Assembly: GCA_022710715.1 (NCBI GenBank) | Contig: JAKLGJ010000001.1 | Location: 554,041 to 618,040, forward strand | Reading direction: 5' to 3' | Source: Candidatus Omnitrophota bacterium | Lineage (GTDB): Bacteria; Omnitrophota; Gorgyraeia; Gygaellales; Profunditerraquicolaceae | DNA length: 64,000 nucleotides | Shown: positions 21,161-37,539 of the stretch, one piece after another | Position numbering within the stretch: the stretch's first letter is position 1 | Layout: the number at the start of each line of letters is the position of its first letter | Translations under genes and position numbers: made by a program | The notes under the pieces: model-generated | The model's database searches: none | Told to the model about the DNA's origin: nothing | What the model saw: the letters and a program-made list of their open reading frames with translations, nothing else

Positions 21161-22837
<1,677 letters not shown>

Positions 22838-23128: not shown

Positions 23129-23178
23129 TACGACACCTCCTTATGGTTGAGTATGTGTTTGGGATTGGTTTACCGTGG

Positions 23179-23205
23179 TTAGCAATCTTACCATCAGAGT
23201 GCTAA
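23179..23205. promoter_or_regulatory. CIRCE operator (HrcA binding site)
   Basis: TTAGCAATC-N9-GAGTGCTAA against consensus TTAGCACTC-N9-GAGTGCTAA. It lies between the -10 and the groES start. Confidence 0.8.
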
Positions 23206-23232
23206 TTATAGTGAAATTGCGCGGATTGTCAA
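23205..23232 (-). promoter_or_regulatory. groESL sigma70 promoter (TTGACA-16-TATAAT)
   Basis: Minus strand reads TTGACAatccgcgcaatttcacTATAAT. The -10 abuts the CIRCE left arm. Confidence 0.65.
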
Positions 23233-23245
23233 GCATTTTTTTGGC

Positions 23246-23296
23246 AAAAAAAAGACGGTTCTATTTTTCAAAAATAGAACCGTCCCCTTTTTTGTA
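23246..23296. terminator. bidirectional intrinsic terminator (terminates the tandem-repeat protein gene on the minus strand)
   Basis: Perfect 15-bp inverted repeat GACGGTTCTATTTTT-c-AAAAATAGAACCGTC, flanked by an A8 run on one side and CCCCTTTTTT on the other. Confidence 0.65.
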
Positions 23297-23315
23297 AGCT
23301 GGTAATACGTCGGAA

Positions 23316-23933
23316 TTACTTGTTTTTAAAACCGTTCTCGGGATCCCAGGTATGCCCTTGATCATGATTGCCGAAAGGCGTGCTGGTATCGCCGCAGTCC
23401 GTACAAGAGGTATCCGATCCTCCGGAGCCGCCGCCTTCGGTATTGCCCCCGAATGGACCATAACCACCCCGTGGTTCATCGGTGAACGTGAACGGCCGGG
23501 CAGGCAGTATTGTTGCGCCTGTCGGTCTGGCACTTTCATAGGTCAGGTCCGGGACGTTGCCCGGATTGATGTACGTTGAACGCGTGCCGCGGTCAGGGGT
23601 AACTATTTCGTAGGTTGAATCCGGCACATTGCCCGGATTGCTGTAGGTTGAACGCATGCCGCGGTCAGGGGTAGCTATTTCGTAGGTCGAATCCGGAACG
23701 TTGCCCGGATTGACGGAAGGCCGTATGCCGTTATTCGGGGTGGCCGTTTCATAGGTTGAATCCGGCACATTGCCCGGATTATGGAAACTCCTGCCGGAAA
23801 AAGAGGGCATAGTGTTTGAGTACGGAGAACCTTCGAATGTATCCCTTTCGGCCAGAGCATCGCTGATAACCGTCAGACAACAGGCCAGCGTTGCACTGAC
23901 TGCGATACCCAACCACGCCCGCACTTTGATCAT
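23316..23933 (-). CDS. secreted tandem-repeat protein (4 x NPGNVPDSTYE-type repeats, Gly/Ser/Thr-rich C-terminus)
   Basis: 205 aa after moving the start to MIKVRAWLGIAVSATLACCLTVISDALA (signal peptide; ATG at 23933 preceded by AAAGGAGG). Repeats begin at aa 52, 75, 99 and 123. Confidence 0.6.
   Translation of the reverse strand: MIKVRAWLGIAVSATLACCLTVISDALAERDTFEGSPYSNTMPSFSGRSFHNPGNVPDSTYETATPNNGIRPSVNPGNVPDSTYEIATPDRGMRSTYSNPGNVPDSTYEIVTPDRGTRSTYINPGNVPDLTYESARPTGATILPARPFTFTDEPRGGYGPFGGNTEGGGSGGSDTSCTDCGDTSTPFGNHDQGHTWDPENGFKNK
23500..23780. repeat. four tandem DNA repeats of about 69-72 bp inside the repeat-protein CDS
   Basis: Iterated ...ggcacattgcccggattg(c/a)tgta(g/c)gttgaacgc(g/a)tgccgcggtcaggggta(a/g)ctatttcgtaggt(t/c)gaatcc... 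with a few substitutions per copy. Confidence 0.6.
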
Positions 23934-23958
23934 GGAGACCTCCTTTAAACAGCCGGCT

Positions 23959-24226
23959 AAAAGAAAAAACCCTAAGGACACCATTTCCTTAGGGTTGTAC
24001 TCGATGGTATGCCTTTGGTAGCGCAGCCTTCCACAACACATCCGATCGAGCACCTGGCGCAATCAGAATGTGCGCCAGTGCACTGCGGGTGCAGTGGAAC
24101 TGTCACTTTGCTTCCGGGGCGCTTGCGCGTTACCCGGAAGTCCCGCCTGTTGATCTTGCGTATCTTTTCGCGGGACGTCCCCCGATCACTCGGGGTTTGC
24201 CTTTTTCAACGGGTTTCTACACTGAC
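23959..24226 (-). ncRNA. candidate structured 5' leader or small RNA (about 270 nt) ending in an intrinsic terminator 25 nt before the repeat-protein ATG. Its 5' part resembles a c-di-GMP-I (GEMM) aptamer half
   Basis: Predicted promoter TTGAAT-16-TATACT at 24233-24260 (minus strand). RNA begins ...GUUGAAAAAGGCAAACC-CCGA-GUGA-UCGG-GGGACG (compare Vc2 GGCAAACC-AUUC-GAAA-GAGU-GGGACG). It ends in CCCUAAGG-AAAUGGUGU-CCUUAGGG-UUUUUUCUUUU at 23959-23994. Confidence 0.3.
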
Positions 24227-24312
24227 AAAAAAAGTATAGCACATTTGCGCAAAAATTCAAGTTGTGCAATTGGGCTCTTTGTCAACACAGTGCCGGGGGC
24301 GCGGGCAGGGTA

Positions 24313-24543
24313 TTACTGAATGACTGCAAGCAGGTCTCCGGGCTTGACCGTATCGCCTTCTTTAAAGAAGATCTCGGTCAGGATGCCGGTTGCCGGGCTG
24401 GGCAGGTTGTACGCGGCTTTATCCGTGGTGAGTTCGACCAGGTCCGCTTTCTCCTTCACCTGGGCTCCGGGCTGGAAATACCAGAATGAAAGCGTGGCTT
24501 TTTCGATGGATTCACCGAGCGTCGGAACAATAACTTGTATCAT
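24313..24543 (-). CDS. stand-alone lipoyl/biotinyl attachment domain protein
   Basis: 76 aa. MIQVIVPTLGESIEKATL...LVELTTDKAAYNLPSPATG is the single-hybrid-motif lipoyl domain with the modified Lys in TDKA. Confidence 0.7.
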   Translation of the reverse strand: MIQVIVPTLGESIEKATLSFWYFQPGAQVKEKADLVELTTDKAAYNLPSPATGILTEIFFKEGDTVKPGDLLAVIQ

Positions 24544-25180
24544 GGCTCAATCTCCTGGTGATGAGGTTGACGATTTCAGAAATATCGACGGGATGACCCA
24601 GCACCGTTTCCATGCTGGTCATGCGGATATCCATGCCGCAGGGGCGAATGCAGGCGAATCCCTTCAAATCCGCGGCCGACACATTGATCGCACATCCGTA
24701 ACCGGTGATCCAGTCGTGCACGGAAATACCGATAGAGGCGATTTTTTCTCCGCCGACCCAGACGCCGGTCAGTCCCGGTTTGCGCTCTCCGGTAATGGCT
24801 GACGCCCCCAGAATACCCAGTATGAACGCTTCCAGGCTGCGCAGATAATAATGCAGATCCGCTCTCCTGGTCCGCAGGTCCAGTACAGGGTAAACGCACA
24901 GTTGCCCGGGACCGTGGTAGGTGACATCCCCTCCCCGGCGCACCTGACGGACGGCGATGCCTTTATGCGCCAACTGCTCGGCATTCATCAACAGATTCTG
25001 CGGACTGCTGGAACGGCCGCAGGTGATCACCGGATAGTGGCGGCAAACTATCGCCGTTGCGCCGCTCGCGCGGCTGCGTACCTGCGTCCGGATTTCCTCC
25101 TGCATGCGTTCAAATACGGCATATTCGAGTAAGCCGGCGTCAAGAATCCGGTCGCAGCGGATCGGTTCGGTAAACATCAC
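24512..25180 (-). CDS. lipB: octanoyl-[ACP]:protein N-octanoyltransferase
   Basis: 222 aa. RRGGDVTYHGPGQLCVYPVLDL is the LipB signature. Confidence 0.85.
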   Translation of the reverse strand: MMFTEPIRCDRILDAGLLEYAVFERMQEEIRTQVRSRASGATAIVCRHYPVITCGRSSSPQNLLMNAEQLAHKGIAVRQVRRGGDVTYHGPGQLCVYPVLDLRTRRADLHYYLRSLEAFILGILGASAITGERKPGLTGVWVGGEKIASIGISVHDWITGYGCAINVSAADLKGFACIRPCGMDIRMTSMETVLGHPVDISEIVNLITRRLSHDTSYCSDAR

Positions 25181-26478
25181 GGTCGGTTTTGCAGCATCTC
25201 TACGATGCTTTCGGATAAAGAAGGATGCGCCATAACCGTGGACTGCAGCTGGGAAACGGTTATGCCGTGTTGTACTGCCAGGGTTACTACGGCAATGAGT
25301 TCCCCGGCACGCGGGCCGATAATACTTCCGCCGATAATCTGCCGCGTATCCGGTTCATACACCAGTTTGACGAACCCATCTTTTTCTTCAAGAATACGGG
25401 CCATTCCTGAACCGAGGAAATCGAAAGTAACGGTTTGCGCTTTCCTGCCGTCGGCTGCAGCCTGCTCTTCCGATAAACCCACATAAGCGATCTCGGGATC
25501 GGTAAAAACGCAGGCGGGAATATGCCGTCGGTCCCAGGGCAGCGGTTTCGTCCCGGCGATCACGCTTACCGCGTGCCTGCTCTGGCTGGCTGCGGCATGC
25601 GCGAGCATTACCTGGCCGGTGCAGTCTCCTGCGGCATAGATCGAATGTACGCTGGTGCGCTGGTTTTCATCGACTTCGATCGCTTGTTTTTCCAGGCGCA
25701 CACCTGCCTCTTCGAGGTTTAAGCCGTCGGTTAAGGGGCGCCTGCCGGTGCAGACGAGGATTTTTTCGTACGCGTCGGTTTTCAGCGCGCCGGCGTCAGT
25801 GCCGGTAAGCACGGTAATCCCTTTTTTTCTGAACAGGCTTTCCAGTTTCACCGCGATCGCGCGGTCGACTCCCGGCAATAATCGGGGCAGATATTCCGCC
25901 AGGGTGACGGTCACGCCTAAAGCGGCAAAAAGACCGGCAAACTCGCAGCCGATGGCTCCGCCGCCGACGATCAAAAGCGACTTCGGCAACGCAGGCAGCG
26001 TAAGAACATCGTCGCTGGAGAGTATTCTGTCATGGTCAAAGGGCAACGCCGTCAGTTGCGCCGGAACCGAGCCGGTGCAGATCAACAGCGCGCCGGCGTC
26101 CAGCGTTTGGCCGCCCGCAGACACGGAATGGGCGGAGAGCACCCGCGCGTTGGAACGGATGACGTGCGCGTCTTTGAGCAGATAGTCCATGCCCTGGCGC
26201 AGCTGTGTCACAAGTTTGTCTTTGCGTTCCTGCATCCGGGTAAAATTCGCCCGGGTCTCGCCCGTCAACTCGACGCCGAACATCCCGGCTTTGGAGCATT
26301 GGGCGAGCGTTTTTGCGGACTGGATCAGCGATTTGGTGGGTATACACCCCCGGTTTAAACAGGTCCCTCCGACCTCCGACTGCTCGATAAGGACTGTTTT
26401 CAACCCCAGGCTTCTGGCTTTGAGAAAACCGTTGAAGCCGGCCCAGCCTGCGCCGATGATGATCAGATCGTAGTTCAT
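25177..26478 (-). CDS. lpdA: dihydrolipoyl dehydrogenase (E3)
   Basis: 433 aa. FAD-binding GAGWAG motif and redox-active CLNRGCIPTK disulfide. Confidence 0.9.
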   Translation of the reverse strand: MNYDLIIIGAGWAGFNGFLKARSLGLKTVLIEQSEVGGTCLNRGCIPTKSLIQSAKTLAQCSKAGMFGVELTGETRANFTRMQERKDKLVTQLRQGMDYLLKDAHVIRSNARVLSAHSVSAGGQTLDAGALLICTGSVPAQLTALPFDHDRILSSDDVLTLPALPKSLLIVGGGAIGCEFAGLFAALGVTVTLAEYLPRLLPGVDRAIAVKLESLFRKKGITVLTGTDAGALKTDAYEKILVCTGRRPLTDGLNLEEAGVRLEKQAIEVDENQRTSVHSIYAAGDCTGQVMLAHAAASQSRHAVSVIAGTKPLPWDRRHIPACVFTDPEIAYVGLSEEQAAADGRKAQTVTFDFLGSGMARILEEKDGFVKLVYEPDTRQIIGGSIIGPRAGELIAVVTLAVQHGITVSQLQSTVMAHPSLSESIVEMLQNRP

Positions 26479-26525
26479 AGTATATATGATTGATGGAAAG
26501 GCGGCCGCGGCAACTGCGCTTGACG

Positions 26526-27449
26526 TTAACCGATCAAACCGCCCAGAGCCCGGATAGATTCGCAGGAAGTTTTGAACTGCTGGGCTTCCTGGGTGTTCAA
26601 TGTAAGCTGGATTATTTTACCGATGCCGTTTTTATTGATAAGGCATGGAACGCCTGCGCACACGTCGTTTACGCCGTATTCGCCGCAGAGCAGAGTCGAA
26701 ACACCGATGGTCGCCGACTGGTCGCGGACGATCGCGCGCACGAGTTCGGCGATGGCGGCGGACGGTGCGACAAAAGCGCTCCCCGTTCCCAGGAATGAAA
26801 CGATCTCTTTGCCCCGCTCCACCGTGCGTTTGATCAGCTCGTCGATCTCGGCCTGCGGCAGCAGTTCCGCCAGGGGCTTTCCATTGACCAGGGTAAAACG
26901 CGGCATGGGAAGCATGGCTTCCCCGTGGCTGGCGATGACGCAGGCCTGGATCTGCGTGACCGGCACTCCGGTTTTCAAGCTGATCAGATTGGCGAAGCGG
27001 CTGGCATCGAGGCTGACCCCCATGCCGAAAAGGCGGTTCGGTTTAAAGCCGGTTATGCGTAAAGCGTACCGGGTCATGACATCCAGCGGATTAGTGACGA
27101 TGATCACCACAGCCTGCGGGGCCAGGACCGTTATCTGCTCGCAGATGCCTTTCAATATCTCGGCGTTCTTTTTAAGCAGGTCTTCGCGGGTCATCCCGGG
27201 TTTTCTGGCCAGGCCGGCAGTCACCACGATGATGTCGGAATCCTTAAGGTCGCGGATGTCCGCGCTGCCGGTGATGGAATACGGCGTCTGGACCAGCGCG
27301 CGGGCGTCCTCCAGATCACAGGCTTTGCCGCGGGCCAGGCCGCTCACCACGTCGATGAGCATAATATCGCCGAGATTATCCTGCGCCATGCGCAGCGCGG
27401 CGCAGCCGCCGACATTTCCCGCTCCGATTACGGTTATCTTCTTAGCCAT
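26526..27449 (-). CDS. mdh: malate dehydrogenase (LDH-like family)
   Basis: 307 aa. MAKKITVIGAGNVGG Rossmann motif, substrate Arg residues, IVVTAGLARKPGMTR. Confidence 0.9.
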   Translation of the reverse strand: MAKKITVIGAGNVGGCAALRMAQDNLGDIMLIDVVSGLARGKACDLEDARALVQTPYSITGSADIRDLKDSDIIVVTAGLARKPGMTREDLLKKNAEILKGICEQITVLAPQAVVIIVTNPLDVMTRYALRITGFKPNRLFGMGVSLDASRFANLISLKTGVPVTQIQACVIASHGEAMLPMPRFTLVNGKPLAELLPQAEIDELIKRTVERGKEIVSFLGTGSAFVAPSAAIAELVRAIVRDQSATIGVSTLLCGEYGVNDVCAGVPCLINKNGIGKIIQLTLNTQEAQQFKTSCESIRALGGLIG

Positions 27450-27460
27450 AGGTATGTTGC

Positions 27461-28546
27461 TTATTGTTTGAGTTTCCCGATGATGGCGTCGGCCATCTCT
27501 TTTGTGCCTGCCGCAGACGGATCGTTCCGGTCGGCTTTGAGGTCATAGGTGACATCCGTGCCTTCCTTGAGCACTGCCTGGACCGCCTGTTCCAGCCGCA
27601 GGGCCGCTTTTTCTTCTCCCAGATACCGCAGCATGAGCATCCCGGAAAGGATCATTGCGGTGGGATTGACTTTATTCATGCCGGCATATTTCGGCGCGGA
27701 ACCGTGCACCGCTTCAAAAACCGCCATCCCGTCGCCGATATTGGCGCCTGGAGCCACTCCCAGCCCTCCGACCAGGCCGGCGCACAGGTCCGAAAGGATA
27801 TCGCCGTAAAGGTTAGGCAGTACCAGAACGTCGAACTGATGAGGACGTTGCACCAGCTGCATGGCGGTATTGTCCACCAGGGCTTCTTCGAAAGCGATCC
27901 TGCCCGCGTAGTTTGCGGCAACTTCCCGGCAGACCTTCAGGAACAGTCCGTCGGTGAATTTCATGATGTTGGCCTTAGTTATCGCCGTGACCTTTTTGCG
28001 GTTATTGCGCAGGGCGTACTCGAAAGCGTAGGTAACGATGCGTTGCGTGGCATAGCGGGAAATAGGCTTGATGGAGATGCCGGAATCCTCGCGGATATGC
28101 TTTTTTGACGTTTTGTTTATTTGCGCGATAAGCGCGGCGGTGTCGGGTTTGCCTTGTTCGAATTCGATCCCGGCATAGAGGTCTTCGCTGTTTTCCCTCA
28201 CGACTACCAGGTCGATATCCTTATACCTGCTTTTGACTCCGGCGTACGTTTTGGCCGGCCGCACGCAGGCGTAGAGGTCCAGAGCATGCCGGATGGCTAC
28301 GTTGACCGAACGGAAACCCGTTCCGATCGGCGTCGTCATCGGTCCTTTGAGGGCGACTTTGTTCTTTTTGACCGAATCGATCACGCTCGCGGGAAGTAAC
28401 TCGCCGAATTTTTCCAGAGCGGTTGAGCCGGCGATCGCTTCTTCCCAGCGGATCTGCACGCCGGTGGCTTCAACGCAACGCCTCGCTGCGTCGCTGACTT
28501 CCGGGCCGATTCCGTCGCCGGGAATCAAGGTAACAGTGTGTGCCAT
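27461..28546 (-). CDS. NAD-dependent isocitrate / homoisocitrate dehydrogenase family enzyme (beta-decarboxylating dehydrogenase)
   Basis: 361 aa. GFRSVNVAIRHALDLYACVRP and NLYGDILSDL. Resembles the IDH3/HICDH branch rather than LeuB (LeuB has ...LFSNLRP). Exact substrate not assignable from sequence. Confidence 0.75.
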   Translation of the reverse strand: MAHTVTLIPGDGIGPEVSDAARRCVEATGVQIRWEEAIAGSTALEKFGELLPASVIDSVKKNKVALKGPMTTPIGTGFRSVNVAIRHALDLYACVRPAKTYAGVKSRYKDIDLVVVRENSEDLYAGIEFEQGKPDTAALIAQINKTSKKHIREDSGISIKPISRYATQRIVTYAFEYALRNNRKKVTAITKANIMKFTDGLFLKVCREVAANYAGRIAFEEALVDNTAMQLVQRPHQFDVLVLPNLYGDILSDLCAGLVGGLGVAPGANIGDGMAVFEAVHGSAPKYAGMNKVNPTAMILSGMLMLRYLGEEKAALRLEQAVQAVLKEGTDVTYDLKADRNDPSAAGTKEMADAIIGKLKQ

Positions 28547-28550
28547 AGTT

Positions 28551-29051
28551 CTAAACTTTTAATTCGCCGTGTTTTTTGATGTAATTGACGACCCCGCCGT
28601 CCTTGAGGAATTCCTGCATTACCGGAGGCAGGGGTTTGATGGAAAGTTCGATCCCTTTGGTCCTGTTCTTGACCACCCCGTGGTCGAGGTCAAGTTCCAG
28701 TTCATCCCGGTCGTCGATTTTGGAAGTATCCGTTTCGATAAGGAGCAGCCCGATATTGAAAGCGTTGCGGAAGAATATCCTCGCGAACGACTGTGCCAGG
28801 ACCGCGATGATGCCGGCGCCTTTGATGACCAGCGGCGCCTGTTCGCGCGACGACCCCATGCCGAAATTCTTCCCAGCGACGAGAATTGACTCGCCCGGCG
28901 TGATTTTTTTGTGAAAGTCGGGATCGATATCCTCCATGATGTGCTTGGCCAGCTCATTGATATCGGTAATGGAGAATTTGTAGCGGCCGGAAATGATGAA
29001 ATCGGTATTGATATTGTCGCCGATCTTTATGCTGTTGCCCGTGAGTTTCAC
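28551..29051 (-). CDS. aconitase-superfamily small subunit (LeuD / homoaconitase small subunit, archaeal-type)
   Basis: 166 aa, MKLTGNSIKIGDNINTDFII...GKNFGMGSSREQAP. Confidence 0.8.
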   Translation of the reverse strand: MKLTGNSIKIGDNINTDFIISGRYKFSITDINELAKHIMEDIDPDFHKKITPGESILVAGKNFGMGSSREQAPLVIKGAGIIAVLAQSFARIFFRNAFNIGLLLIETDTSKIDDRDELELDLDHGVVKNRTKGIELSIKPLPPVMQEFLKDGGVVNYIKKHGELKV

Positions 29052-29077
29052 CGCGGCGGTTCCTTTCTCTAACGCTT

Positions 29078-30124
29078 TTACAACTGTTTGAATTCTTCCA
29101 CGTTCTTAGCCTTGGACATGGCCACTTCCAGCGTGATCAATCCCTTATTATATAATTCTTTGAGCGTCTTATCCATGGTCTTCATCCCGTACTGGCTGCC
29201 GGTTTGCATGATCGTGGGGATCTGCTCGATTTCCTGCTCGCGGACAAGGTTGCGGATGGCCGGCGTGGCGACCAGGGTTTCGGTGACCAGACAGCGGCCG
29301 GTTCCCGACTGATGCGGGACCAGGAGTTGCGATACGATGCCCTGCAAACAGTCTGCCAGCTGCAGGCGGACCTGCTGCTGTTGATGAGGCGGAAAAACGT
29401 CGATGATTCTCTCGATGGTCTGCGGCGCATCCGGAGTATGCAGCGTGGCCAGTACGAGATGGCCGGTTTCCGCTGCGGTCAGCGTGGTTGAAATGGTTTC
29501 CAGATCGCGCATTTCCCCTACGATAATGACGTTGGGATCCTGGCGCAGGCAGTGGCGCAGCGCTTCGGAGAATGAATGCGTATCCGCATAGACCTCGCGT
29601 TGCTTGACAATGGCTTTCTTGTTGGTATAAATGAATTCTATAGGGTCTTCGATAGTGATGATCAATCCTTCGCGCTCCTGGTTGATCAGGTTCACTACCG
29701 CGGCCATGGTAGTCGATTTACCCACGCCGGTAGGGCCGGTGATCAGCACCAGACCGTTCGGCCTGCGGGCCAGCTCCATGACTACCGGAGGCAGCCCCAG
29801 GGATTCGATGTCGGGAATTTCGAGCGGGATGCGCCGGAAAGCCCCTTCAACCGATCCTTTCTGCTGATGCAGATTGACGCGGAAGCGGTCCAGGCAGGGC
29901 AAGGCCAGGGAAAAGTCGAGCTCCAGGTCGCGTTCGAACATTTCTTTTTGCGTGTCGGTCAACACGCTGTAAATCATCTTCTTAAGCACATCGCGGGTCA
30001 ACTTGGCCAGGTCGGTGCGCAGCAGGCGGCCGTCGATACGCAACAACGGCGGTTCGTTCTCGGTGAGATGCAGGTCGGACGCTCTTTTCTTGACGCAGAG
30101 TATCAATAGCTCATTAATATCCAT
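29078..30124 (-). CDS. pilT: type IV pilus retraction ATPase PilT
   Basis: 348 aa. Walker A GPTGVGKST, Asp box, Walker B, His box. PilT-specific AIRNLVRE near the C-terminus. Confidence 0.85.
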   Translation of the reverse strand: MDINELLILCVKKRASDLHLTENEPPLLRIDGRLLRTDLAKLTRDVLKKMIYSVLTDTQKEMFERDLELDFSLALPCLDRFRVNLHQQKGSVEGAFRRIPLEIPDIESLGLPPVVMELARRPNGLVLITGPTGVGKSTTMAAVVNLINQEREGLIITIEDPIEFIYTNKKAIVKQREVYADTHSFSEALRHCLRQDPNVIIVGEMRDLETISTTLTAAETGHLVLATLHTPDAPQTIERIIDVFPPHQQQQVRLQLADCLQGIVSQLLVPHQSGTGRCLVTETLVATPAIRNLVREQEIEQIPTIMQTGSQYGMKTMDKTLKELYNKGLITLEVAMSKAKNVEEFKQL

Positions 30125-30134
30125 GCTGCCTCCC

Positions 30135-31391
30135 TTATCCTAGAAACTTTGTAGGGTCGGTGATCTTTCCGGTGATCGCTGATGCTGCCACTGTTGCCGG
30201 TGAAGCCAGATAGATGAACGCGCTGGGATTTCCCATCCTGCCTTTGAAATTCCGGTTTGCCGTGGAGATGACCACTTCCCCGTCCGAAGGAACGCCGTTA
30301 TGCGTTCCCACGCAGGGGCCGCAACCCGGGACCACAACCGCGGCGCCGCTCTTGACGAACGTATCGATATAGCCCAGGCGCAACGCTTCAAGATAGATTG
30401 CCCGGGAAGCCGCAGCGACGATACAGCGCACGTTGGCGGCTACTTTTCTGTTCTTGAGCACCGCAGCCGCGACCTTCAGATCGGCGAGCCGCCCGTTGGT
30501 GCAGGTGCCGATAAAAGCTTCGTTTATCGTTACTGCTTTAACGTCGTCCGCATCCGAGACCGTATCCACATTATGAGGGACAGCGACCTGGGGTTTTAGT
30601 TTAGAGACGTCGAACTCCAGGACGTCCTGGTACACTGCGTCTTTGTCGGCGCAGACCGTAACGATCTTCTTGTTCGACGGAATATGCTGTTTGAACCAGG
30701 CCAGGGTTTTAGCGTCCTGCGGCATGAATCCCGCCTTGGCGCCCATCTCCACCACCATATTGCACATGGTCATCCTGCCGTCAATGTCCATGGCGTCGAT
30801 TACCGGTCCGCAAAACTCTATTGCTTTATAGGTGGCGCCGTTAGCGCCCACTTTTCCGATGATGTGCAGAATGATATCCTTGGCGTAAATGCCTTTCGGC
30901 AGTTTACCTTTGACCACTATCTTGATCGTTTCGGGAACCTTGAACCAGTTCTTCCCGGTAGTCAGCGCCACTGCGAGGTCCGTCGAGCCCACGCCGGTCG
31001 AAAATACGCCCAGCGCGCCGTAGGTGCAGGTGTGCGAATCCGCCCCCAGAACCAGGTTGCCCGGGAGAATCGCTCCGGATTCAGGAATTACCTGATGGCA
31101 TACGCCGCAGCCGATGTCGAACAACCCGACGTTATATTCCTGGCTGAACTGGCGCATCTTTTTGTGCACGCGCGAGACGCCCTCGTTGGGCGAAGGCGCG
31201 CTGTGGTCGATGACCATGCAGAATGCAGCGTTGAGCTTTTTGGCGCCGAGCTCTTTGACCCGGTCTATGATTATGGACGAGGTGCCGTCCTGCCCGAAGG
31301 TAAAATCAACGGCGCAAATGGCGAATTCGCCGGCACTGACCGGTTTTCCGGCGTGAGCGCTCAAAATTTTTTCGGCAATTGTTTTTCCCAT
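30135..31391 (-). CDS. aconitase-superfamily large subunit (LeuC / homoaconitase large subunit, archaeal-type)
   Basis: 418 aa. MGKTIAEKILSAHAGK..., Fe-S Cys ligands (...CGPCVG...), short archaeal-type length. Confidence 0.85.
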   Translation of the reverse strand: MGKTIAEKILSAHAGKPVSAGEFAICAVDFTFGQDGTSSIIIDRVKELGAKKLNAAFCMVIDHSAPSPNEGVSRVHKKMRQFSQEYNVGLFDIGCGVCHQVIPESGAILPGNLVLGADSHTCTYGALGVFSTGVGSTDLAVALTTGKNWFKVPETIKIVVKGKLPKGIYAKDIILHIIGKVGANGATYKAIEFCGPVIDAMDIDGRMTMCNMVVEMGAKAGFMPQDAKTLAWFKQHIPSNKKIVTVCADKDAVYQDVLEFDVSKLKPQVAVPHNVDTVSDADDVKAVTINEAFIGTCTNGRLADLKVAAAVLKNRKVAANVRCIVAAASRAIYLEALRLGYIDTFVKSGAAVVVPGCGPCVGTHNGVPSDGEVVISTANRNFKGRMGNPSAFIYLASPATVAASAITGKITDPTKFLG

Positions 31392-31397
31392 GGGAAT

Positions 31398-32573
31398 TTA
31401 CAGTTTTTTAAGGAACTCGTCCAACCGGTTCATGCCTTTTTCGATCTGCTGCATGCCGGTGGCGAAACTGATGCGGATGCAGGTATCGGCGCCGAATGAC
31501 TGGCCCGGGATGACCGCGACCAGCATTTCGTCGAGCAGGCGCTGCGCGAACGTAAACGAATCAAGTTTGGTTTTGGCGATGGAACAGAAAATATAAAAAG
31601 CTCCCTGCGGCTTCACGTAGGAGATCTTTTTCATTTTGTCCAGTCGGGAGGCGATGTAATTCCTGCGTTTTTCGAATTCAGCGCACATCGTCTGCGAGAA
31701 CGCGTCCGGCATCTGCAGAGCAGCCAGCGCGGCTTTTTGAGCGATCGAAGTGGGGTTCGAGGTGGAATGATCCTGAAGTTTCCCGATCGCCTCAACGATG
31801 TCAGCCGGTCCGCCGAGGTACCCGATACGCCAGCCGGTCATGGAATGGCTCTTGGAAAGGCCGTTGACGGTAATGGTCAGATCGTAGATCTCTTTACCCA
31901 GCGAGCCGATGGAGACGTGTTTTTGACCGTCGAATATGATCTTCTCGTAAATCTCGTCGCTGACCACGAATATCTTTTGACTGACGCAGATCGCCGCGAT
32001 AGCCTGCAGCTCCTCTTTGCTGTAAACGCAGCCGGTAGGATTGGACGGGCTGTTGAGGATCAGCAGTTTGGTTTTGGCATGGATATGCCTTTCCAGTTCG
32101 GCGGGAGTGATCTTGAAATTGTTCTCGGGGGTCGTCTTGATGAATTTTACCCCGGCCTCGCACAGATGGGCCATTTCCGGGTAGCTGACCCAGAAAGGCG
32201 CGGGGATGATCGCTTCCTCGGAACGGTTGAGCAGCACGAACAGGGTATTGAAGATGCTGTGTTTTGCCCCGCAGGAAACCACGATCTGCGACGTCTCGTA
32301 CGCCAGGCCGTTATCCCTCTTGAATTTCTCGGCAATGGCCTTCTTGAGGTCGGGTATACCTGTGGTGGGAGTATATTTGGTAAAACCCGAGTGAATCGCG
32401 GCTATAGCGGCTTCTTTTACGACATCCGGCGTATCGACATCCGGCTCGCCGGCGGCAAAACTGACCACATCTTTCCCCTCGGCTTTAAGCTTATTTGCCT
32501 TGGAGGTGATGGCCAGAGTCGCTGAAGGATTGATTTTTTTGATACGTTCAGAAAGCCTGGTATCTATACGCAT
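31398..32573 (-). CDS. PLP-dependent class I aminotransferase (aspartate / alpha-aminoadipate aminotransferase-like)
   Basis: 391 aa after moving the start to MRIDTRLSERIKKI (ATG at 32573). The upstream 100 aa of the track ORF overlap rplQ. PLP-Lys context ...NGLSKSHSMTGWRIGY. Confidence 0.8.
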   Translation of the reverse strand: MRIDTRLSERIKKINPSATLAITSKANKLKAEGKDVVSFAAGEPDVDTPDVVKEAAIAAIHSGFTKYTPTTGIPDLKKAIAEKFKRDNGLAYETSQIVVSCGAKHSIFNTLFVLLNRSEEAIIPAPFWVSYPEMAHLCEAGVKFIKTTPENNFKITPAELERHIHAKTKLLILNSPSNPTGCVYSKEELQAIAAICVSQKIFVVSDEIYEKIIFDGQKHVSIGSLGKEIYDLTITVNGLSKSHSMTGWRIGYLGGPADIVEAIGKLQDHSTSNPTSIAQKAALAALQMPDAFSQTMCAEFEKRRNYIASRLDKMKKISYVKPQGAFYIFCSIAKTKLDSFTFAQRLLDEMLVAVIPGQSFGADTCIRISFATGMQQIEKGMNRLDEFLKKL

Positions 32574-32578
32574 CGGCG

Positions 32579-33151
32579 TTAGAGCGAATCCCGTTCTTTC
32601 TTGAAGATGTTCCGTATTCCGCCCAGGAATTTCTTTGAAGGTTTCTTGGGCGCATCTTTGGTCTTCTCGGTTTTCTGCGGATGCTTTTCCTCGGCAGCGG
32701 GTTTCTCCGTCGCGGGAGGTTGAGTAGCCGACGGTTCTTTTCCTTCTTTGATTTCTTTGGCTTCTTTGACCTGCTTGACCTTCTTTTCCTTTTTCTTGAG
32801 CTCGGTGAGCTGCAAGAGCACCATTTCCGCGTTGTCGCCGCGCCGTTTGCCGACCTTGAGAATTCTGGTGCATCCGCTCGGAACGTTCTTGAAACGCGGG
32901 CAGATTTCAGCGAACAGCCGGTTCACCAGCGCATGGTCCTGGAGCAGATCGAACGCGCGACGTTTATGCGTGAGCGAATCTTCCTTGCCTAACGTAATCA
33001 GCTTCTCCACCAGCGGCTGTATCGCCTTTGCCCGGATCTCCGTCGTCTTGATGCTTTCATAGGTCAAGAGATTGCGCACGAGGCTTTTAACGGTGGCTTC
33101 CCGCCAGCTGGTGAATCTGTTGAGTTGATATTTTGTCTTACCGTGTCTCAT
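32579..33151 (-). CDS. rplQ: 50S ribosomal protein bL17 with a ~65-aa Lys/Glu-rich C-terminal extension
   Basis: MRHGKTKYQLNRFTSWREATVKSL...; core ~125 aa plus a KKEKKVKQVKEAKEIKEGKE... tail. Confidence 0.9.
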   Translation of the reverse strand: MRHGKTKYQLNRFTSWREATVKSLVRNLLTYESIKTTEIRAKAIQPLVEKLITLGKEDSLTHKRRAFDLLQDHALVNRLFAEICPRFKNVPSGCTRILKVGKRRGDNAEMVLLQLTELKKKEKKVKQVKEAKEIKEGKEPSATQPPATEKPAAEEKHPQKTEKTKDAPKKPSKKFLGGIRNIFKKERDSL

Positions 33152-33163
33152 CTGTAGTCACCT

Positions 33164-34153
33164 TTATGATTTCTTGAGTTTCTTCGGATCGATCTGCATG
33201 CCCAGGTTCAACCCCATGCCGACAAGCAGTTGTTTGATTTCACTTAAGGACTTCTTGCCGAAATTCTTGAAGCTCAACATTTCCTCTTCGCTTTTCCGTA
33301 CCAGATCGGCGATAGTCTTGATATTGGCTTCACGCAGACAGTTCGAACTGCGCACTGAAAGCTCGAGTTCGGAAATCGGCAGGCGAAGTTTCTCGTAAAG
33401 AACCGCCTCTTCCTGGGTCATTTCCGGTTCCTGCTCTTCTTCTTCCGGCAGCTGCCCGAAATTGACGAAGATATCCAGATGGCGCTGCAGGATGTTGGAA
33501 GCGTACAGGAGCGCGTCTTTGGGGGAAATGGACCCGTTGGTCCAGATCTCCAGGATCAGCTTATCGTAATCGGTACGCTGTCCGACGCGGGTGTTCTCGA
33601 CGTAAAAGTTGATCTTCTTGACCGGGCCGAAGATCGCGTCGATGGGAATGGTGCCGATGGCATGGTCCTCTTTCTTGTTGAGATCCTGCGGAACGTAGCC
33701 TCTGCCCCGTGAAACCTCCATTTCCATCGAGAACTTCGTTTCCTTGGTCAGGGTGCAGATGTGCAGGTCAGGATTGACCACTTCGATCGTCTCATCGGTT
33801 TCGATATCCTTGGCTTTGATCTCGCCCTTGGTGTTCTTTTTGATGGTGATGGTCTTGGGCACCTTGGAATGCGAGCGCAGGATGAGATTCTTCACATTGA
33901 GTATGATTTCGGTCACATCCTCGAGAACGCCCGGGATAGCGGTGAACTCGTGCTGCGCATTGGAGAATTTGATCGAGGTGACCGCGCTGCCTTCGATCGA
34001 TGAAAGCAGGACCCTGCGCAATGAATTGCCCAGCGTGATCCCGTAACCGCGTTCGAACGGCGCAGCGGCGAATTTTCCGTACGTATTGGTATAGCTCGCC
34101 TCATCGCATTCTAATTTTTTAGGTAGTTGAAAATCTCTCCATTTTACTCCCAT
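33164..34153 (-). CDS. rpoA: DNA-directed RNA polymerase subunit alpha
   Basis: Start moved to MGVKWRDFQLP (ATG at 34153, RBS AAGGAGG). ...FERGYGITLGNSLRRVLLSSIEG, alpha-CTD at the end. Confidence 0.9.
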   Translation of the reverse strand: MGVKWRDFQLPKKLECDEASYTNTYGKFAAAPFERGYGITLGNSLRRVLLSSIEGSAVTSIKFSNAQHEFTAIPGVLEDVTEIILNVKNLILRSHSKVPKTITIKKNTKGEIKAKDIETDETIEVVNPDLHICTLTKETKFSMEMEVSRGRGYVPQDLNKKEDHAIGTIPIDAIFGPVKKINFYVENTRVGQRTDYDKLILEIWTNGSISPKDALLYASNILQRHLDIFVNFGQLPEEEEQEPEMTQEEAVLYEKLRLPISELELSVRSSNCLREANIKTIADLVRKSEEEMLSFKNFGKKSLSEIKQLLVGMGLNLGMQIDPKKLKKS

Positions 34154-34196
34154 CGACTGCCTCCTTAAAGACCCGCCCTCTGGGCGGGGATTTAAT

Positions 34197-34292
34197 CCCG
34201 ACATCTTTGATTTGCCGGAGGCAAATCAGTCGGGATAAAACATCCTGTAGAGCGCCGACATTTTTGATTTGCCGAAGACAAATCAGTCGGGG
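34197..34292 (-). repeat. two tandem ~38-nt hairpin-forming direct repeats plus a third GC hairpin in the rpsD-rpoA intergenic region
   Basis: Copies CCCGACAUCUUUGAUUUGCCGGAGGCAAAUCAGUCGGG (34197-34234) and CCGACAUUUUUGAUUUGCCGAAGACAAAUCAGUCGGGG (34255-34292). Each has inner stem GAUUUGCC/GGCAAAUC with a UUCG or UCCG loop. The third hairpin CCCGCCC/GGGCGGG lies at 34173-34189 just before the rpoA RBS. Confidence 0.5.
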
Positions 34293-34308
34293 TTTATCTC
34301 CATTACAT

Positions 34309-34941
34309 TTACTTCGAATACAATTCGACGATCAATTGTTCTTCGATCGTTTGCTGAATATCCGTTTTTTCCGGCAGACGCAGAACTTTGGCTTTCATTT
34401 CAGCCGAATTGAATTCCAGCCAGGTGGGCACGGTGCGATCCTTGGAAATATCCAGGTTTTCGCGCAGCCCTTTTTTGGACTTCTCTTTGGCGCGGATCTC
34501 TATAGCGTCGCCGGTTTTGATCGAGAACGACGGGATATTGACCCTGCGGCCGTTCACTGCAACGAAATTATGCCGTACCAGCTGGCGGCTTTCCGCGCGG
34601 GAAAGTCCGACACCCATCCTGAAGATAACGTTGTCCAGCCTGCGTTCGAGTAACTGCAGAAGGACTTTGCCGGTAACGCCCTTCGATTTCGAAGCGATGG
34701 CGAAATAGCGGCGAAACTGCTTTTCCATGACGCCGTAGATCCTCTTCACCTTCTGTTTTTCCCGCAACTGGACGCCGTAGTTGGAAAGCTTGATCCTCGT
34801 TTTAGTCGGGCCATGCTGTCCGGGCGCGTAATTGCGTTTGGATAACGGGCATTTATCGGTGGTACATTTCGTCCCTTTCAAAAACAGCTTATCCTGCTGT
34901 CTTCTGCATAATCTACAGACTGCTTGCGTGTATCGTGCCAT
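34309..34941 (-). CDS. rpsD: 30S ribosomal protein uS4
   Basis: MARYTQAVCRLCRRQQDKLFLKGTKC... Confidence 0.95.
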   Translation of the reverse strand: MARYTQAVCRLCRRQQDKLFLKGTKCTTDKCPLSKRNYAPGQHGPTKTRIKLSNYGVQLREKQKVKRIYGVMEKQFRRYFAIASKSKGVTGKVLLQLLERRLDNVIFRMGVGLSRAESRQLVRHNFVAVNGRRVNIPSFSIKTGDAIEIRAKEKSKKGLRENLDISKDRTVPTWLEFNSAEMKAKVLRLPEKTDIQQTIEEQLIVELYSK

Positions 34942-34964
34942 AGTGTTTTACTCCATCTCCGGGA

Positions 34965-35354
34965 TTATACTCTTCTCTTTTTCTTTGGCCTGCATCCGTT
35001 ATGCGGAATAGGCGTAATATCCTTGATCGACGTGACCGTCAGCCCGCCTGCCTGTAACGCGCGTATCGCCGATTCTCTGCCGGGGCCGGGACCTTTGACC
35101 AGAACATCGACGGATTTAAGTCCCATGTCTTTGGCTTTTTTTGCCGCATCGGTAGCGGCCATCTGCGCCGCGAACGGGGTTGATTTTCTCGAGCCGCCAT
35201 ACCCGACGATCCCCGGGGTCGACCATGCCAGGGTGTTGCCCTGCTTGTCGGAAATCGTCACGATGGTATTATTGAAGCTGGCCAGTACATGCGCGATACC
35301 AGCGGTAATACCTTTAAGGACTTTCTTTTTCTTCGGTGTCTTTTCTGTAGACAT
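34965..35354 (-). CDS. rpsK: 30S ribosomal protein uS11
   Basis: ...[22 protein letters not shown]... Confidence 0.95.
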
Positions 35355-35377
35355 TGACTTTTACTCCTTGCGTTTTA

Positions 35378-35758
35378 TTACTCTGCTTTCTTAACGATAG
35401 CGGAAGCGCCTTTCTTCGGGCCTTTGCGCGTGCGTGCGTTGGTGCGGGTGCGCTGACCCCGTGCCGGCAAACCTTTTTTGTGACGCATGCCGCGGTAGGT
35501 GCCGATATCCATCAGGCGTTTTATATTCTGCGAAATATCCCTGCGCAGGTCGCCCTCGACCTTATACGTGCCTTTCTGCAGCGTGGTAGTGATGTGCGAA
35601 ACTTCTTCCTCGGTCAGATCCTTGGCGCGTTTTTCCGGCGGGATACCGACATCCTTCAAGATGAGCTTGGACATATGCGGTCCAACTCCGTACAAATACG
35701 TCAGTGCGACGTCAATCCGTTTTCCCTTGGGTAAATCTACACCTAAGATTCTTGGCAC
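35378..35758 (-). CDS. rpsM: 30S ribosomal protein uS13
   Basis: [26 protein letters not shown]... Confidence 0.95.
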
Positions 35759-35789
35759 GTGTACTCCTCCTGATTAACTTCTTAAATGG

Positions 35790-35903
35790 TTAACCCTGTC
35801 TTTGTTTATGTTTGAGATTCTTGCAGATAACGCGTACAACCCCGCGCCGTTTGATAATCTTGCAGTTGTCGCAGATTTTTTTTACCGAAGCTTTTACTTT
35901 CAC
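35790..35903 (-). CDS. rpmJ: 50S ribosomal protein bL36 (GTG start; missing from the ORF track because <60 aa)
   Basis: Reverse complement reads GTG AAA GTA AAA GCT TCG GTA AAA AAA ATC TGC GAC AAC TGC AAG ATT ATC AAA CGG CGC GGG GTT GTA CGC GTT ATC TGC AAG AAT CTC AAA CAT AAA CAA AGA CAG GGT TAA = (M)[36 protein letters not shown]. Lies between infA and rpsM as expected. Confidence 0.85.
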
Positions 35904-35915
35904 GTTTTTCCTCGC

Positions 35916-36134
35916 TTATTTTACTCTGAAGGTAATACGCCCCCGCGTAAGATCGTACGGGGACAATTCCAGTTTCACTTTATCTCCGGGCAGGATGCGG
36001 ATGAAATGCATGCGCATCTTTCCCGAAACATGAGCCAGGACAAAATGTCCGTTTTCCAGCTCGACTTTAAAGACGGCGTTCGGCAACGCTTCAACTACCG
36101 TCCCTTCGGTTTCGATATGTTCTTCTTTTGGCAT
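35916..36134 (-). CDS. infA: translation initiation factor IF-1
   Basis: 72 aa, ...[18 protein letters not shown]... Confidence 0.95.
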
Positions 36135-36136
36135 AG

Positions 36137-36883
36137 TTAGTACGCAGTAAGTAATTGCGGACCGGAGTCCGTTAAAGCCACCGTATGTTCAAAATGCGCC
36201 GAATGTTGCCTGTCCAGCGTGACCGCGGTCCATCCGTCTTCCAGAATTTCACATTCCCAGGTTCCCAGGTTGACCATGGGCTCTATCGCAAAAACCATGC
36301 CCGGTTTCAACAGCGGGCCCCGGTGCGGTTTTCCGAAATTGGGAATCTCCGGTTCTTCGTGCATAGCGCGTCCGATGCCATGACCGACGAACTGGCGGAC
36401 CACCGAAAAACCGTTTCTTTCTACGCAGCTTTGCACGGCAGCGGCGATATCGGTGAGCCGATTATCCACCTGCATCTGCCGGATACCTTCGTTCAAAGCC
36501 TGTCTGGTTATATCAATGAGCTTCTTGATTTTGGCAGAGATTTTTCCCACACCGACCGTTACTGCGGCATCGGAAAAAACCCCCTGATGAATTATTCCCG
36601 CATCCAGACTGATCAGGTCGCCTTCCAGGAGCTTGCGCTCTCCGGGAATCCCGTGCACGACAACTTCATTGACCGATGTGCAAATGGATGCCGGATAGCC
36701 GCGGTACCCTTTGAAAGCGGCCAGTACCCGTTCCGTACGCATCAATTCTTCAGCGTACTCGTTGATCTGTGCGGTGGTGATACCCGGTTTGACGTATTCC
36801 TGCAGCTTGACCATGATGCGTGCCAGTATTGCCCCTGCCTGACGCATCAGTTCCAGATCGCTCGCGTTCTTGATGGGTATCAT
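36137..36883 (-). CDS. map: type I methionine aminopeptidase
   Basis: 248 aa with metal-ligand Asp/His/Glu positions conserved. Confidence 0.9.
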
Positions 36884-36891
36884 TGCACTGC

Positions 36892-37539
36892 TTATTGTGG
36901 TGAAATCAGCCGCACGATCGCCTGCAGCACCTGCTCCACGCTTTTATCCGCAGAAACGGTGCGCAGTTTCTTTTGCGTCTGATAATACTCTAATAACGCG
37001 GCGACTTCGTTCTTGTACACCGTCAGCCGTTTTTTAATCGTTTCTTCTTTGTCATCCGCGCGCTGGTACAGTTCTCCGCCGCACACATCGCAGATACCTT
37101 CCCGCTTGGGCGGCATATTCACGCGATGAAAGTTTGCGCCGCATGTGCGGCAAACCAGGCGGCCGGAAAGCCGCTGGATGACTGTTTCGTCGCTCACTTC
37201 GAGATTGAGCGCGTAATCGATGGTCATTGTAAATCCGGCGAGTATCCGGTCGAGTGTTTTCGCCTGATTGATCGTCCGGGGATATCCGTCGAGGATAAAG
37301 CCTTTTTGCACATCCGGCTGCTTGAAGCGCTCGGTGAGCATCTTGGTTACCAGCTCATCCGGCACAAGCAGTCCTTTGGTCATGTACCCCTGCGCTTCCT
37401 GACCGAGCGGCGTGTTGTTCGCGACGTTGGACCGCAGCAGGTCGCCGGTGGAAACATGCGGCAGCTTCAGCTCTTTGGAGAGCATTTTGGCATGCGTCCC
37501 TTTGCCTGCCCCCGGAGCGCCTAACAAAACCAGTCTCAT
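36892..37539 (-). CDS. adk: adenylate kinase (zinc-lid type)
   Basis: 215 aa, MRLVLLGAPGAGKGT, lid CRTCG...CDVCG. Confidence 0.9.
   Translation of the reverse strand: MRLVLLGAPGAGKGTHAKMLSKELKLPHVSTGDLLRSNVANNTPLGQEAQGYMTKGLLVPDELVTKMLTERFKQPDVQKGFILDGYPRTINQAKTLDRILAGFTMTIDYALNLEVSDETVIQRLSGRLVCRTCGANFHRVNMPPKREGICDVCGGELYQRADDKEETIKKRLTVYKNEVAALLEYYQTQKKLRTVSADKSVEQVLQAIVRLISPQ

Follow-up and report, generated by a model that had tools for sequence, protein, structure and literature searches.

We examined a 64,000-nucleotide (nt) stretch of a Candidatus Omnitrophota genome (NCBI GenBank assembly GCA_022710715.1, contig JAKLGJ010000001.1, positions 554,041 to 618,040 of the forward strand), hereafter the window, in which the alpha ribosomal operon continues into a block of metabolic genes. 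Behind rplQ, this block encodes a class I aminotransferase, the two subunits of a LeuCD-like hydro-lyase with a PilT-family ATPase gene between them, a putative isocitrate dehydrogenase (IDH), and a malate dehydrogenase (MDH). Judged from sequence similarity and gene context, the LeuCD-like enzyme most likely serves as the aconitase of the cell. We are confident in reading the enzymes as an aconitase/IDH set, and we think it fairly probable that the alpha operon and this predicted glutamate-producing module together form one co-transcribed string. The finding is an annotation correction combined with a conserved oddity of gene order, not a new kind of system.

The alpha operon and the genes behind rplQ

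Gene coordinates were taken from the open reading frame (ORF) table of the window, and families were assigned through NCBIfam and Pfam scans of the window proteins (Table 1). On the minus strand, the genes follow one another in the order rpsD, rpoA, rplQ, aminotransferase, LeuC-like, PilT, LeuD-like, IDH, and MDH, and the arrangement rpsM-rpsK-rpsD-rpoA-rplQ is that of a canonical alpha operon. The original prediction for this DNA, made from the sequence and its reading frames, held that the operon runs unbroken into the metabolic block. ORF coordinates and family scans bear this out, and the successive gaps given from rplQ to MDH (5, 6, 10, 26, 4, and 11 nt) agree exactly with the ORF table. 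The prediction was also right to count mdh as part of the block, but the interval that it assigned (27461-32573) leaves that gene out, and the string extends further than was supposed. Beyond mdh follow genes for dihydrolipoyl dehydrogenase (Lpd; after a gap of 47 nt), LipB (4-nt overlap), and a 76-amino-acid (aa) lipoyl protein (32-nt overlap) that resembles the N-terminal lipoyl domain of E2 proteins. In total, nine non-ribosomal genes lie behind rplQ, all co-oriented and with gaps of -32 to 47 nt. Relative to the bacterial alpha operon, the window therefore keeps the canonical order upstream, but no terminator stands after rplQ and these nine genes follow. Firmicutes have transport and tRNA-modification genes after rplQ, not central metabolism.

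Table 1. Genes of the string and its downstream boundary, with the evidence for each assignment
Feature	Coordinates	Strand	Basis and remarks
rpsM	35758-35378	minus	ORF and Pfam labels of identical contig; strong GGAGG-type ribosome-binding site; upstream alpha operon
rpsK	35354-34965	minus	ORF and Pfam labels of identical contig; strong GGAGG-type ribosome-binding site; upstream alpha operon
rpsD	34941-34309	minus	ORF and Pfam labels of identical contig; strong GGAGG-type ribosome-binding site; upstream alpha operon
rpoA	34204-33164	minus	RNA_pol_L, RNA_pol_A_bac, RNA_pol_A_CTD
rplQ (L17)	33151-32579	minus	TIGR00059, 119 bits (cut-off 70)
Class I aminotransferase, AspAT subgroup Ib-like, 391 aa	32573-31398	minus	NCBIfam/Pfam; 1j32, 402 bits
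LeuC/HacA-type hydro-lyase large subunit, 418 aa, predicted aconitase	31391-30135	minus	NF001614, 556.7 bits (cut-off 385)
PilT/PilU-family type IV pilus retraction ATPase, 348 aa	30124-29078	minus	TIGR01420, 461.8 bits (cut-off 319.1)
LeuD/HacB-type small subunit, 166 aa, predicted aconitase	29051-28551	minus	TIGR02087, 178.7 bits (cut-off 108.95)
Isocitrate dehydrogenase, short homodimeric type, 361 aa, predicted NADP-dependent	28546-27461	minus	Models, PDB ranking, APKYAG
LDH-like malate dehydrogenase, 307 aa	27449-26526	minus	NF004863, 365 bits (cut-off 283)
Dihydrolipoyl dehydrogenase (Lpd, E3), 433 aa	26478-25177	minus	TIGR01350, 421 bits (cut-off 408.8)
Lipoyl(octanoyl) transferase LipB	25180-24512	minus	TIGR00214, 135.7 bits (cut-off 83.55)
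Free-standing lipoyl-domain protein, 76 aa, final gene of the tight string	24543-24313	minus	PF00364, 62 bits
Strong terminator-like hairpin, 11-bp stem and T-run	23996-23968	minus	Consensus scan; end of structured leader of next gene

The same arrangement was then sought in relatives. A JGI contig and two NCBI metagenome-assembled genomes (MAGs) encode an identical LeuC-like protein, whose nearest relatives (73-81% identity) are nearly all labeled Candidatus Omnitrophota. Taking one genome per species gave 80 loci, which were compared with the window proteins. The aminotransferase stands directly upstream of LeuC in 47 species-level loci. Of the loci that could be assessed for each gene, 33 of 40 have rplQ at most 800 nt upstream of the aminotransferase, 28 of 33 continue with IDH, 27 of 31 with MDH, and 24 of 37 carry PilT between LeuC and LeuD. 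Phylum-wide, the junctions have medians of 1 to 20 nt, with a PilT-LeuD overlap that is usually 4 nt. The complete genome of Ca. Velamenicoccus archaeovorus (locus L038) carries all eleven genes in this order, spaced somewhat more widely, and there the first strong intrinsic terminator after rpoA (13-bp stem, 17322-17353) comes right after the lipoyl-protein gene. Because the arrangement recurs in species-level representatives across Omnitrophota, this complete genome included, chance packing in one genome can be dismissed, and the arrangement is an old, conserved feature of the phylum. On a midpoint-rooted neighbor-joining tree of LeuC, which is indicative only, the pilT-bearing loci span several branches, deep ones included, and this spread suggests that the pilT insertion is ancient and was followed by losses.

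Some loci depart from the common layout. The LeuCD-MDH-Lpd block lacks IDH in L031 and L037, and in L078 and L084 the aminotransferase is preceded by a second, divergent PilT (42-48% identity). In a small clade (L055, L061, L067, and L068), aminotransferase-LeuCD is detached from rplQ and followed by LipB/lipoyl genes, with neither IDH nor MDH. LipA joins the string in some relatives (family f50; TIGR00510, 330 bits). Within the window, public gene calls start rpoA at 34153 (329 aa), and a ribosome-binding site (RBS), aaggagg, lies just before that position. L17 has a Lys/Glu/Pro-rich C-terminal extension of ~70 aa (32579-32790, minus) that ends in FLGGIRNIFKK and partially matches the NCBIfam model "L17, sunset domain variant" (110.9 bits; cut-off 280).

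Transcription and translation of the string

Consensus scans for promoters, of the sigma-70 type, and for terminators covered positions 22500-37500. The 10 promoter-like sites found are at chance level (9.4 expected). From rpsM to the end of the block, the scan gave no terminator-like site on the minus strand except a weak 6-bp stem in mdh (26795-26780), and the ribosomal region upstream of the block was likewise without terminators. The first strong minus-strand terminator-like hairpin lies past the string, at 23996-23968. The earlier statement that no terminator or promoter is recognizable from rplQ onward thus holds. On prediction, transcription does not end after rplQ as an alpha operon is expected to do: the gap there is 5 nt, and the hairpin at 23996-23968 is the first terminator-like site. 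Rfam models at their gathering thresholds identified no regulatory RNA within the block.

Translation signals divide the genes into two sets. GGAGG-type RBSs precede the ribosomal genes, rpoA, pilT (whose own strong RBS reads agggagg), the lipoyl gene, and groES. The aminotransferase, LeuC-like, IDH, MDH, and Lpd genes have no Shine-Dalgarno sequence and start 4-47 nt past the previous stop codon. Because the metabolic genes lack Shine-Dalgarno sequences and stand so close behind the preceding stop, we propose that their translation is coupled and proceeds at a lower rate. Under this proposal, transcription would read through the whole string from the ribosomal promoters, and termination-reinitiation coupling would supply the metabolic enzymes in smaller amounts than the ribosomal proteins. 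Ribosomes would re-initiate strongly at pilT, which in most relatives would be coupled to LeuD through an ATGA overlap.

The spacing, the absence of terminators, and the conservation of the order make it reasonably likely that the metabolic block is co-transcribed with the alpha operon. A rather unlikely alternative is that the block forms one or more separate transcription units, packed behind rplQ in a compact, co-oriented genome and served by promoters inside upstream coding sequence. The 64-kb window is nearly all co-oriented and densely packed, which makes tight spacing alone weak evidence. Against this stand the retention of the rplQ-aminotransferase neighborhood in 33 of 40 species and a 5-nt gap that leaves no space for an intergenic promoter or terminator. 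Two points tell against read-through: 10 of 38 relatives have more than 100 nt between rplQ and the aminotransferase, and promoters internal to coding regions may exist. Weak promoter-like matches occur inside pilT (29175-29147, 10 of 12 positions) and elsewhere, the scan recognized sites of the sigma-70 type only, and the PilT and lipoyl genes carry strong RBSs of their own. Separate units nevertheless fit poorly with a first strong terminator that comes only after the lipoyl gene, both in the window and in Ca. V. archaeovorus, and the metabolic genes lack Shine-Dalgarno sequences, as expected of coupled translation in a polycistron.

Predicted activities of the LeuCD-like pair and its neighbors

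The large subunit exceeds the cut-offs of the heterodimeric hydro-lyase models NF001614 (Table 1) and TIGR02086 (537 bits; cut-off 410.15) and matches PF00330. Its motifs FIGTCTNG and PGCGPCVG, read from the sequence and not structure-mapped, correspond to the three Cys ligands of a [4Fe-4S] cluster. The small subunit reaches TIGR02087, matches PF00694, and has the GSSRE motif within GMGSSREQA. By these matches, the pair is assigned to the archaeal-type two-subunit branch of the aconitase superfamily. It shares the two-subunit architecture, Cys ligand motifs, and GSSRE with the M. jannaschii isopropylmalate/citramalate isomerase (MJ0499/MJ1277; 4kp1, 3vba) and homoaconitase (MJ1003/MJ1271; 4kp2, 2pkp), but it stands beside IDH and MDH, not beside LeuA/LeuB or AksA/AksF. 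AcnA, AcnB, and the mitochondrial enzyme, the canonical aconitases, are single polypeptides of 750-890 aa; the window pair belongs to the same superfamily and has the same predicted reaction, but it is split and much shorter. It is a candidate functional analogue of these enzymes, not a member of their family.

In the archaeal-type LeuCD group, a loop of the small subunit determines specificity, as work on M. jannaschii showed. Compared with 3vba, 2pkp, and 1v7l, the window loop SGRYKFSIT (ISGRYKFS) is one residue longer and contains Lys-Phe. The corresponding loops read ARYLVYT in isopropylmalate isomerase (3vba), GPYLRTT in homoaconitase, and GRYNLTK in a P. horikoshii protein, and ARYLNTS is found in many representatives; the window loop is neither of the hydrophobic YLV/YLN type nor of the YLRT type. 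All related loci with an alignable LeuD N-terminus have ISG[RK][YH]KF. Across 1.84 billion cluster representatives, the loop types form a mosaic that comprises YKF, the large ARYL[NV]T isopropylmalate group, PYL[RK]TT, R[YFL]FHLRS, SSRRKR, and others. These variants (YKF, YLV, YLR, RKR, FHLRS, and others) point to many uncharacterized specificities in the small-subunit family. A neighbor-joining tree of 130 small-subunit representatives was star-like and poorly resolved, and serves as a rough guide only.

Function was approached through the gene context of relatives. The closest LeuC/LeuD pairs outside Omnitrophota (56-62% identity) occur in Syntrophomonas, in Firmicutes of the Peptococcaceae/Desulfotomaculum type, and in Coriobacteriia. 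A NifV-like gene (TIGR02660, 505 bits) adjoins the pair in 18 such loci, in 16 of them immediately upstream of LeuC. We compared the encoded proteins with sequences printed in the supplement of PMC12016533, a study that established HM1_2993 by gene deletion as the Re-citrate synthase of Heliomicrobium. In 16 of the 18 loci, the adjoining protein is 64-74% identical to HM1_2993 (56% in L082), whereas identity to Heliomicrobium NifV is only 39-45%; in one further locus, the protein is instead 53% identical to the Dehalococcoides Re-citrate synthase. Downstream of the relatives' pair stands either a short-type IDH, which shares 51-62% identity with the window enzyme, or one of the E. coli type, and the Syntrophomonas wolfei IDH passes the NADP-IDH equivalogs TIGR00183 (710 bits; cut-off 567) and NF005425 (765 bits; cut-off 490). 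Because two Re-citrate synthase lineages and two IDH subfamilies flank the same LeuCD clade, guilt by association strongly suggests that the pair converts citrate to isocitrate. In none of the 80 loci does leuA or leuB stand beside this LeuCD; the neighbors are IDH, MDH, aspartate aminotransferase (AspAT), or Re-citrate synthase.

Public records call the window pair 3-isopropylmalate dehydratase, and among solved structures it comes closest to the M. jannaschii isopropylmalate/citramalate isomerase (large subunit, 378 bits; small subunit, 149.5). The pair could thus be an ordinary isopropylmalate (or citramalate) isomerase for leucine/isoleucine that stands by chance beside IDH and MDH, or a promiscuous enzyme active in leucine synthesis as well as in the tricarboxylic acid (TCA) branch. 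We consider this improbable. Both subunits miss the LeuC/LeuD equivalogs widely (TIGR02083, 471.1 bits versus 610.65; TIGR02084, 179.1 versus 245.85), the loop ISGRYKFS, with its extra residue and Lys, differs from the hydrophobic ARYLVYT and ARYLNTS of isopropylmalate isomerases, and IDH or Re-citrate synthase, not leuA or leuB, adjoins the pair. In published Omnitrophota MAGs without AcnA, a second LeuCD-type enzyme is available for leucine in 9 of 11, and 2 of the 11 apparently have a single one (PMC8542988).

Several points weigh against the assignment of the pair as an aconitase. The large subunit falls below every equivalog cut-off, aconitase models included: PRK07229 gives 339 bits versus 612, and the models of AcnA, AcnB, and mitochondrial aconitase give 95.9-167.8 bits versus cut-offs of 686-1287 for this pair of 418 and 166 aa. 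The homoaconitase equivalogs are not reached either (NF040615, 454.3 bits versus 550; NF040625, 172.6 versus 230; NF010629, 142 versus 229). The large subunit is about equally near to the M. jannaschii isopropylmalate/citramalate isomerase and to homoaconitase (366 bits), which scores 132.8 bits with the small subunit. Neither a citrate synthase nor a NifV-like gene is present in the window or in the Omnitrophota loci. Finally, a YKF-loop LeuD that is 56% identical to the window protein (P0122, Thermoproteota/Brockarchaeota) belongs to an archaeal cluster of LeuC, LeuD, Iso_dh, and LysY, LysZ, LysJ, and LysK homologues. For this last reason, the YKF loop was rejected as a specific signature of aconitase. 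It would mark a tricarboxylate-type substrate; it tells the group apart from the isopropylmalate type, but not aconitase from homoaconitase. We found no experimentally characterized two-subunit aconitase in the literature searched, where prior biochemical or proteomic work may be missed.

The layout of this archaeal cluster is that of the LysW-type lysine pathway, and it makes the aminoadipate route a reasonable rival. Under that rival, the trio would be homoaconitase and homoisocitrate dehydrogenase (HICDH), with the aminotransferase making alpha-aminoadipate, as the first half of the aminoadipate lysine route or in another 2-oxoacid elongation. It was one of two options in the original prediction, as homoaconitase, HICDH, and alpha-aminoadipate aminotransferase; the other was a LeuCD-type aconitase with IDH and mdh. 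The dehydrogenase helps to separate the two. It matches PF00180 (348.8 bits), and IDH models score 404.5, 376.9, and 355.7 bits with it, ahead of AksF2 (326.7) and LeuB (193.4); no IDH equivalog cut-off is reached (510 bits for the best of these). Among solved structures in the PDB, IDHs take the top ranks (362, 332, 331, 323, and 305 bits), whereas Thermus HICDH comes 33rd with 240 bits and isopropylmalate dehydrogenase (IPMDH) scores 222. The dehydrogenase of the archaeal lysine cluster, used as a control, shows the reverse, with HICDH first (263 bits) and IDH fifth.

The cofactor residues agree with this ranking. The window dehydrogenase has HGSAPKYAG (HGSAPKY[AK]G in most orthologues); at the corresponding place, the archaeal HICDH-like control reads AWDIAG. 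In E. coli IDH, the Lys-Tyr pair binds the 2'-phosphate of NADP, and characterized HICDHs and IPMDHs are NAD enzymes with Asp (Asp-Ile) at this position. We therefore predict an NADP-type isocitrate dehydrogenase, and the earlier label "NAD-IDH" probably names the wrong cofactor. The motif SVNVAIRHALDLYACVRP, on which the earlier prediction relied, is present in the dehydrogenase, but its S-x-N does not serve as an IDH marker; S-x-N was rejected as a means of telling IDH from HICDH, as the archaeal HICDH-like enzyme of the lysine cluster has it too, and similarity ranking and cofactor residues were used in its place.

The other members of the block also bear on the aminoadipate rival. The aminotransferase matches PF00155 (264 bits) and scores 437 bits with NF041091, under the equivalog cut-off of 550. 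Its best solved relatives are AspATs (402-313 bits, from 1j32 to Thermus AspAT at 313), it shows no LysN-type similarity, and no aminoadipate aminotransferase matched it at E ≤ 1e-20 among solved structures. For the MDH, the best solved relatives are MDHs, with the malate-specificity Arg present in ARKPGMTR, and this gene belongs to the conserved block. The Omnitrophota loci all lack homocitrate synthase and LysW/X/Y/Z/J/K genes, and the window LeuC is 58-60% identical to the bacterial group linked to Re-citrate synthase versus 49-50% to the archaeal group. Some support for the rival comes from the membership of the pair in the archaeal-type isopropylmalate isomerase/homoaconitase subfamily (TIGR01343 hacA_fam, 527.7 bits) and from overlapping activities, since Thermus HICDH accepts isocitrate. 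Given the IDH-first ranking, the NADP-type pair, and the AspAT-like aminotransferase, the aminoadipate option is not supported at this locus, and we rate it as very unlikely. The option of a LeuCD-type aconitase with IDH and mdh draws support from the relatives' gene context, the similarity of the dehydrogenase, the AspAT-type aminotransferase, and published reconstructions (PMC8542988).

The archaeal loci, part of a branch that neighbors the window pair within its LeuCD group, deserve mention on their own account. In L087 (1853-8783) and L088 (Thermoproteota/Brockarchaeota), LeuC, a YKF-loop LeuD, an HICDH-like dehydrogenase, and LysY/Z/J/K-like genes stand in one string, which by its gene content looks like an aminoadipate lysine cluster with the loop type of the putative bacterial aconitase.

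Published reconstructions describe a horseshoe TCA cycle in Omnitrophota that ends at 2-oxoglutarate and has a Si- or Re-citrate synthase (Williams et al. 2021, PMC8542988). AcnA was found in only 3 of 14 MAGs, and a supplementary footnote suggested as a possible substitute an enzyme of the aconitase family that bears the annotation isopropylmalate dehydratase, two such enzymes being present in 9 of the 11 AcnA-less MAGs (PMC8542988). According to the table of that study, IDH is of a different, longer kind and lies on other contigs in the three MAGs with AcnA, and other MAGs have IDH next to MDH. Seymour et al. (2023, PMC10066038) likewise describe a horseshoe ending at 2-oxoglutarate and counted any PF00330/PF00694 protein as aconitase. 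In the texts searched, neither reconstruction names the LeuCD paralogue or gives comparative evidence for it. A 2026 preprint that surveyed 176 complete genomes recorded IDH (165 genomes), MDH (166), and canonical citrate synthase (21), and described the TCA cycle as fragmentary (bioRxiv 10.64898/2026.06.07.730766). The short IDH of D. mccartyi, annotated as NAD-dependent, was measured to be NADP-dependent, and its gene shares an operon with further putative TCA genes (PMC4720418).

The nearest known systems are the Re-citrate synthase-aconitase-IDH clusters of strictly anaerobic Clostridia, Heliomicrobium, and Dehalococcoides, which form the oxidative arm of a horseshoe TCA cycle and share the predicted chemistry and an anabolic 2-oxoglutarate/glutamate role. 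The Omnitrophota cluster differs in that it has no citrate synthase, is flanked by AspAT and MDH, is joined to rplQ and split by pilT, and continues with Lpd, LipB, and the lipoyl protein. The literature searched does not mention the linkage to rplQ, the inserted pilT, or the lipoyl genes that end the string.

Proposed role and neighboring features

In the proposed scheme, the LeuCD-type aconitase and the NADP-IDH would take citrate, made by a citrate synthase encoded elsewhere in the genome, to 2-oxoglutarate. MDH would interconvert malate and oxaloacetate, and AspAT would exchange amino groups between 2-oxoglutarate and oxaloacetate to yield glutamate and aspartate. Co-regulation with ribosomes can be rationalized because such a module would make glutamate and aspartate, the main nitrogen donors of protein synthesis, whose supply would be tied to ribosome production. 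The proposal in its broadest form is a read-through super-operon throughout Omnitrophota. It would tie ribosome and RNA polymerase production to 2-oxoglutarate/glutamate and oxaloacetate/aspartate, with an isofunctional, biochemically uncharacterized two-subunit aconitase family replacing AcnA (as also beside Re-citrate synthase in Syntrophomonadaceae, Peptococcaceae, and Coriobacteriia), coupling without Shine-Dalgarno sequences, PilT coupled to the small subunit, and a co-expressed lipoyl/E3 pair. We offer this combination tentatively and regard it as doubtful in its entirety.

Annotation pipelines label the pair as leucine LeuCD, so that Omnitrophota and several anaerobic Firmicutes/Actinobacteria are reported to be without aconitase and to have a "fragmentary" TCA cycle. 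The LeuCD-type pair probably explains the apparent lack of aconitase in Omnitrophota genomes. If the rplQ-linked paralogue is an aconitase, the branch from citrate to 2-oxoglutarate is closed, and both a false negative for aconitase and a possible false positive for leucine synthesis are corrected. The phylum-wide joining of an amino-donor module, a pilus motor gene, and the genes of a lipoyl redox pair to the alpha operon would be an unusual case of central metabolism under growth-rate-type control, in ultra-small, host-associated bacteria.

For the remaining genes of the string, PilT has the motifs GPTGVGKST (Walker A), VGEMRD, and AIRNLVRE. As to the partner of the E3/lipoyl pair, Omnitrophota are reported to be without 2-oxoglutarate dehydrogenase, and the mycobacterial thiol-redox relay of Lpd, lipoyl protein, and AhpD is one possible model.

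Beside the related clusters of Syntrophomonadaceae/Peptococcaceae, genes of 105, 486, and 482 aa (gatC-, gatA-, and gatB-like by size alone) directly precede Re-citrate synthase-LeuCD-IDH, at about 5000-13500 in L045, L046, L052, L053, L060, L066, L071, L073, and L079. If these are truly gatCAB, glutamate supply would be linked with Glu-tRNA(Gln) amidation.

Downstream of the lipoyl gene (23933-24260, minus), a promoter-like TTGAAT-16-TATACT is followed by a strongly structured leader of ~280 nt (z = -5.3), and the hairpin at 23996-23968 closes this leader right ahead of the next gene's RBS. The leader contains a weak match to the c-di-GMP-I-GGC riboswitch (24210-24153; 25.9 bits versus a gathering score of 59) and could be a riboswitch-controlled attenuator. 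The product of the next gene (23316-23933, minus) is 205 aa long, has an N-terminus that resembles a signal peptide, and contains four ~20-aa repeats with NPGNVPDSTYE; no Pfam family is on record for it. A 14-bp hairpin (23254-23284) then precedes a perfect sigma-70 promoter (TTGACA-16-TATAAT, 12 of 12 positions; 23205-23232, minus) upstream of groES (23128-22838) and groEL (22804-21161).

Further along the minus strand, six consecutive ORFs of 113-452 aa (5449-11054) have no Pfam match. Next to them stand genes for proteins with a PilZ domain (11484-11104) and an MshEN domain (12095-11508). Both domains bind c-di-GMP, and the two genes are of interest because they accompany the weak c-di-GMP riboswitch match and pilT. 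Finally, we also note ordinary RNA features of the window at 3525-3884, 5033-5245, and 62324-62656 (minus), namely RNase P RNA class A (170.5 bits), tRNA-Val, tRNA-Met, tRNA-Trp, and tRNA-Thr.

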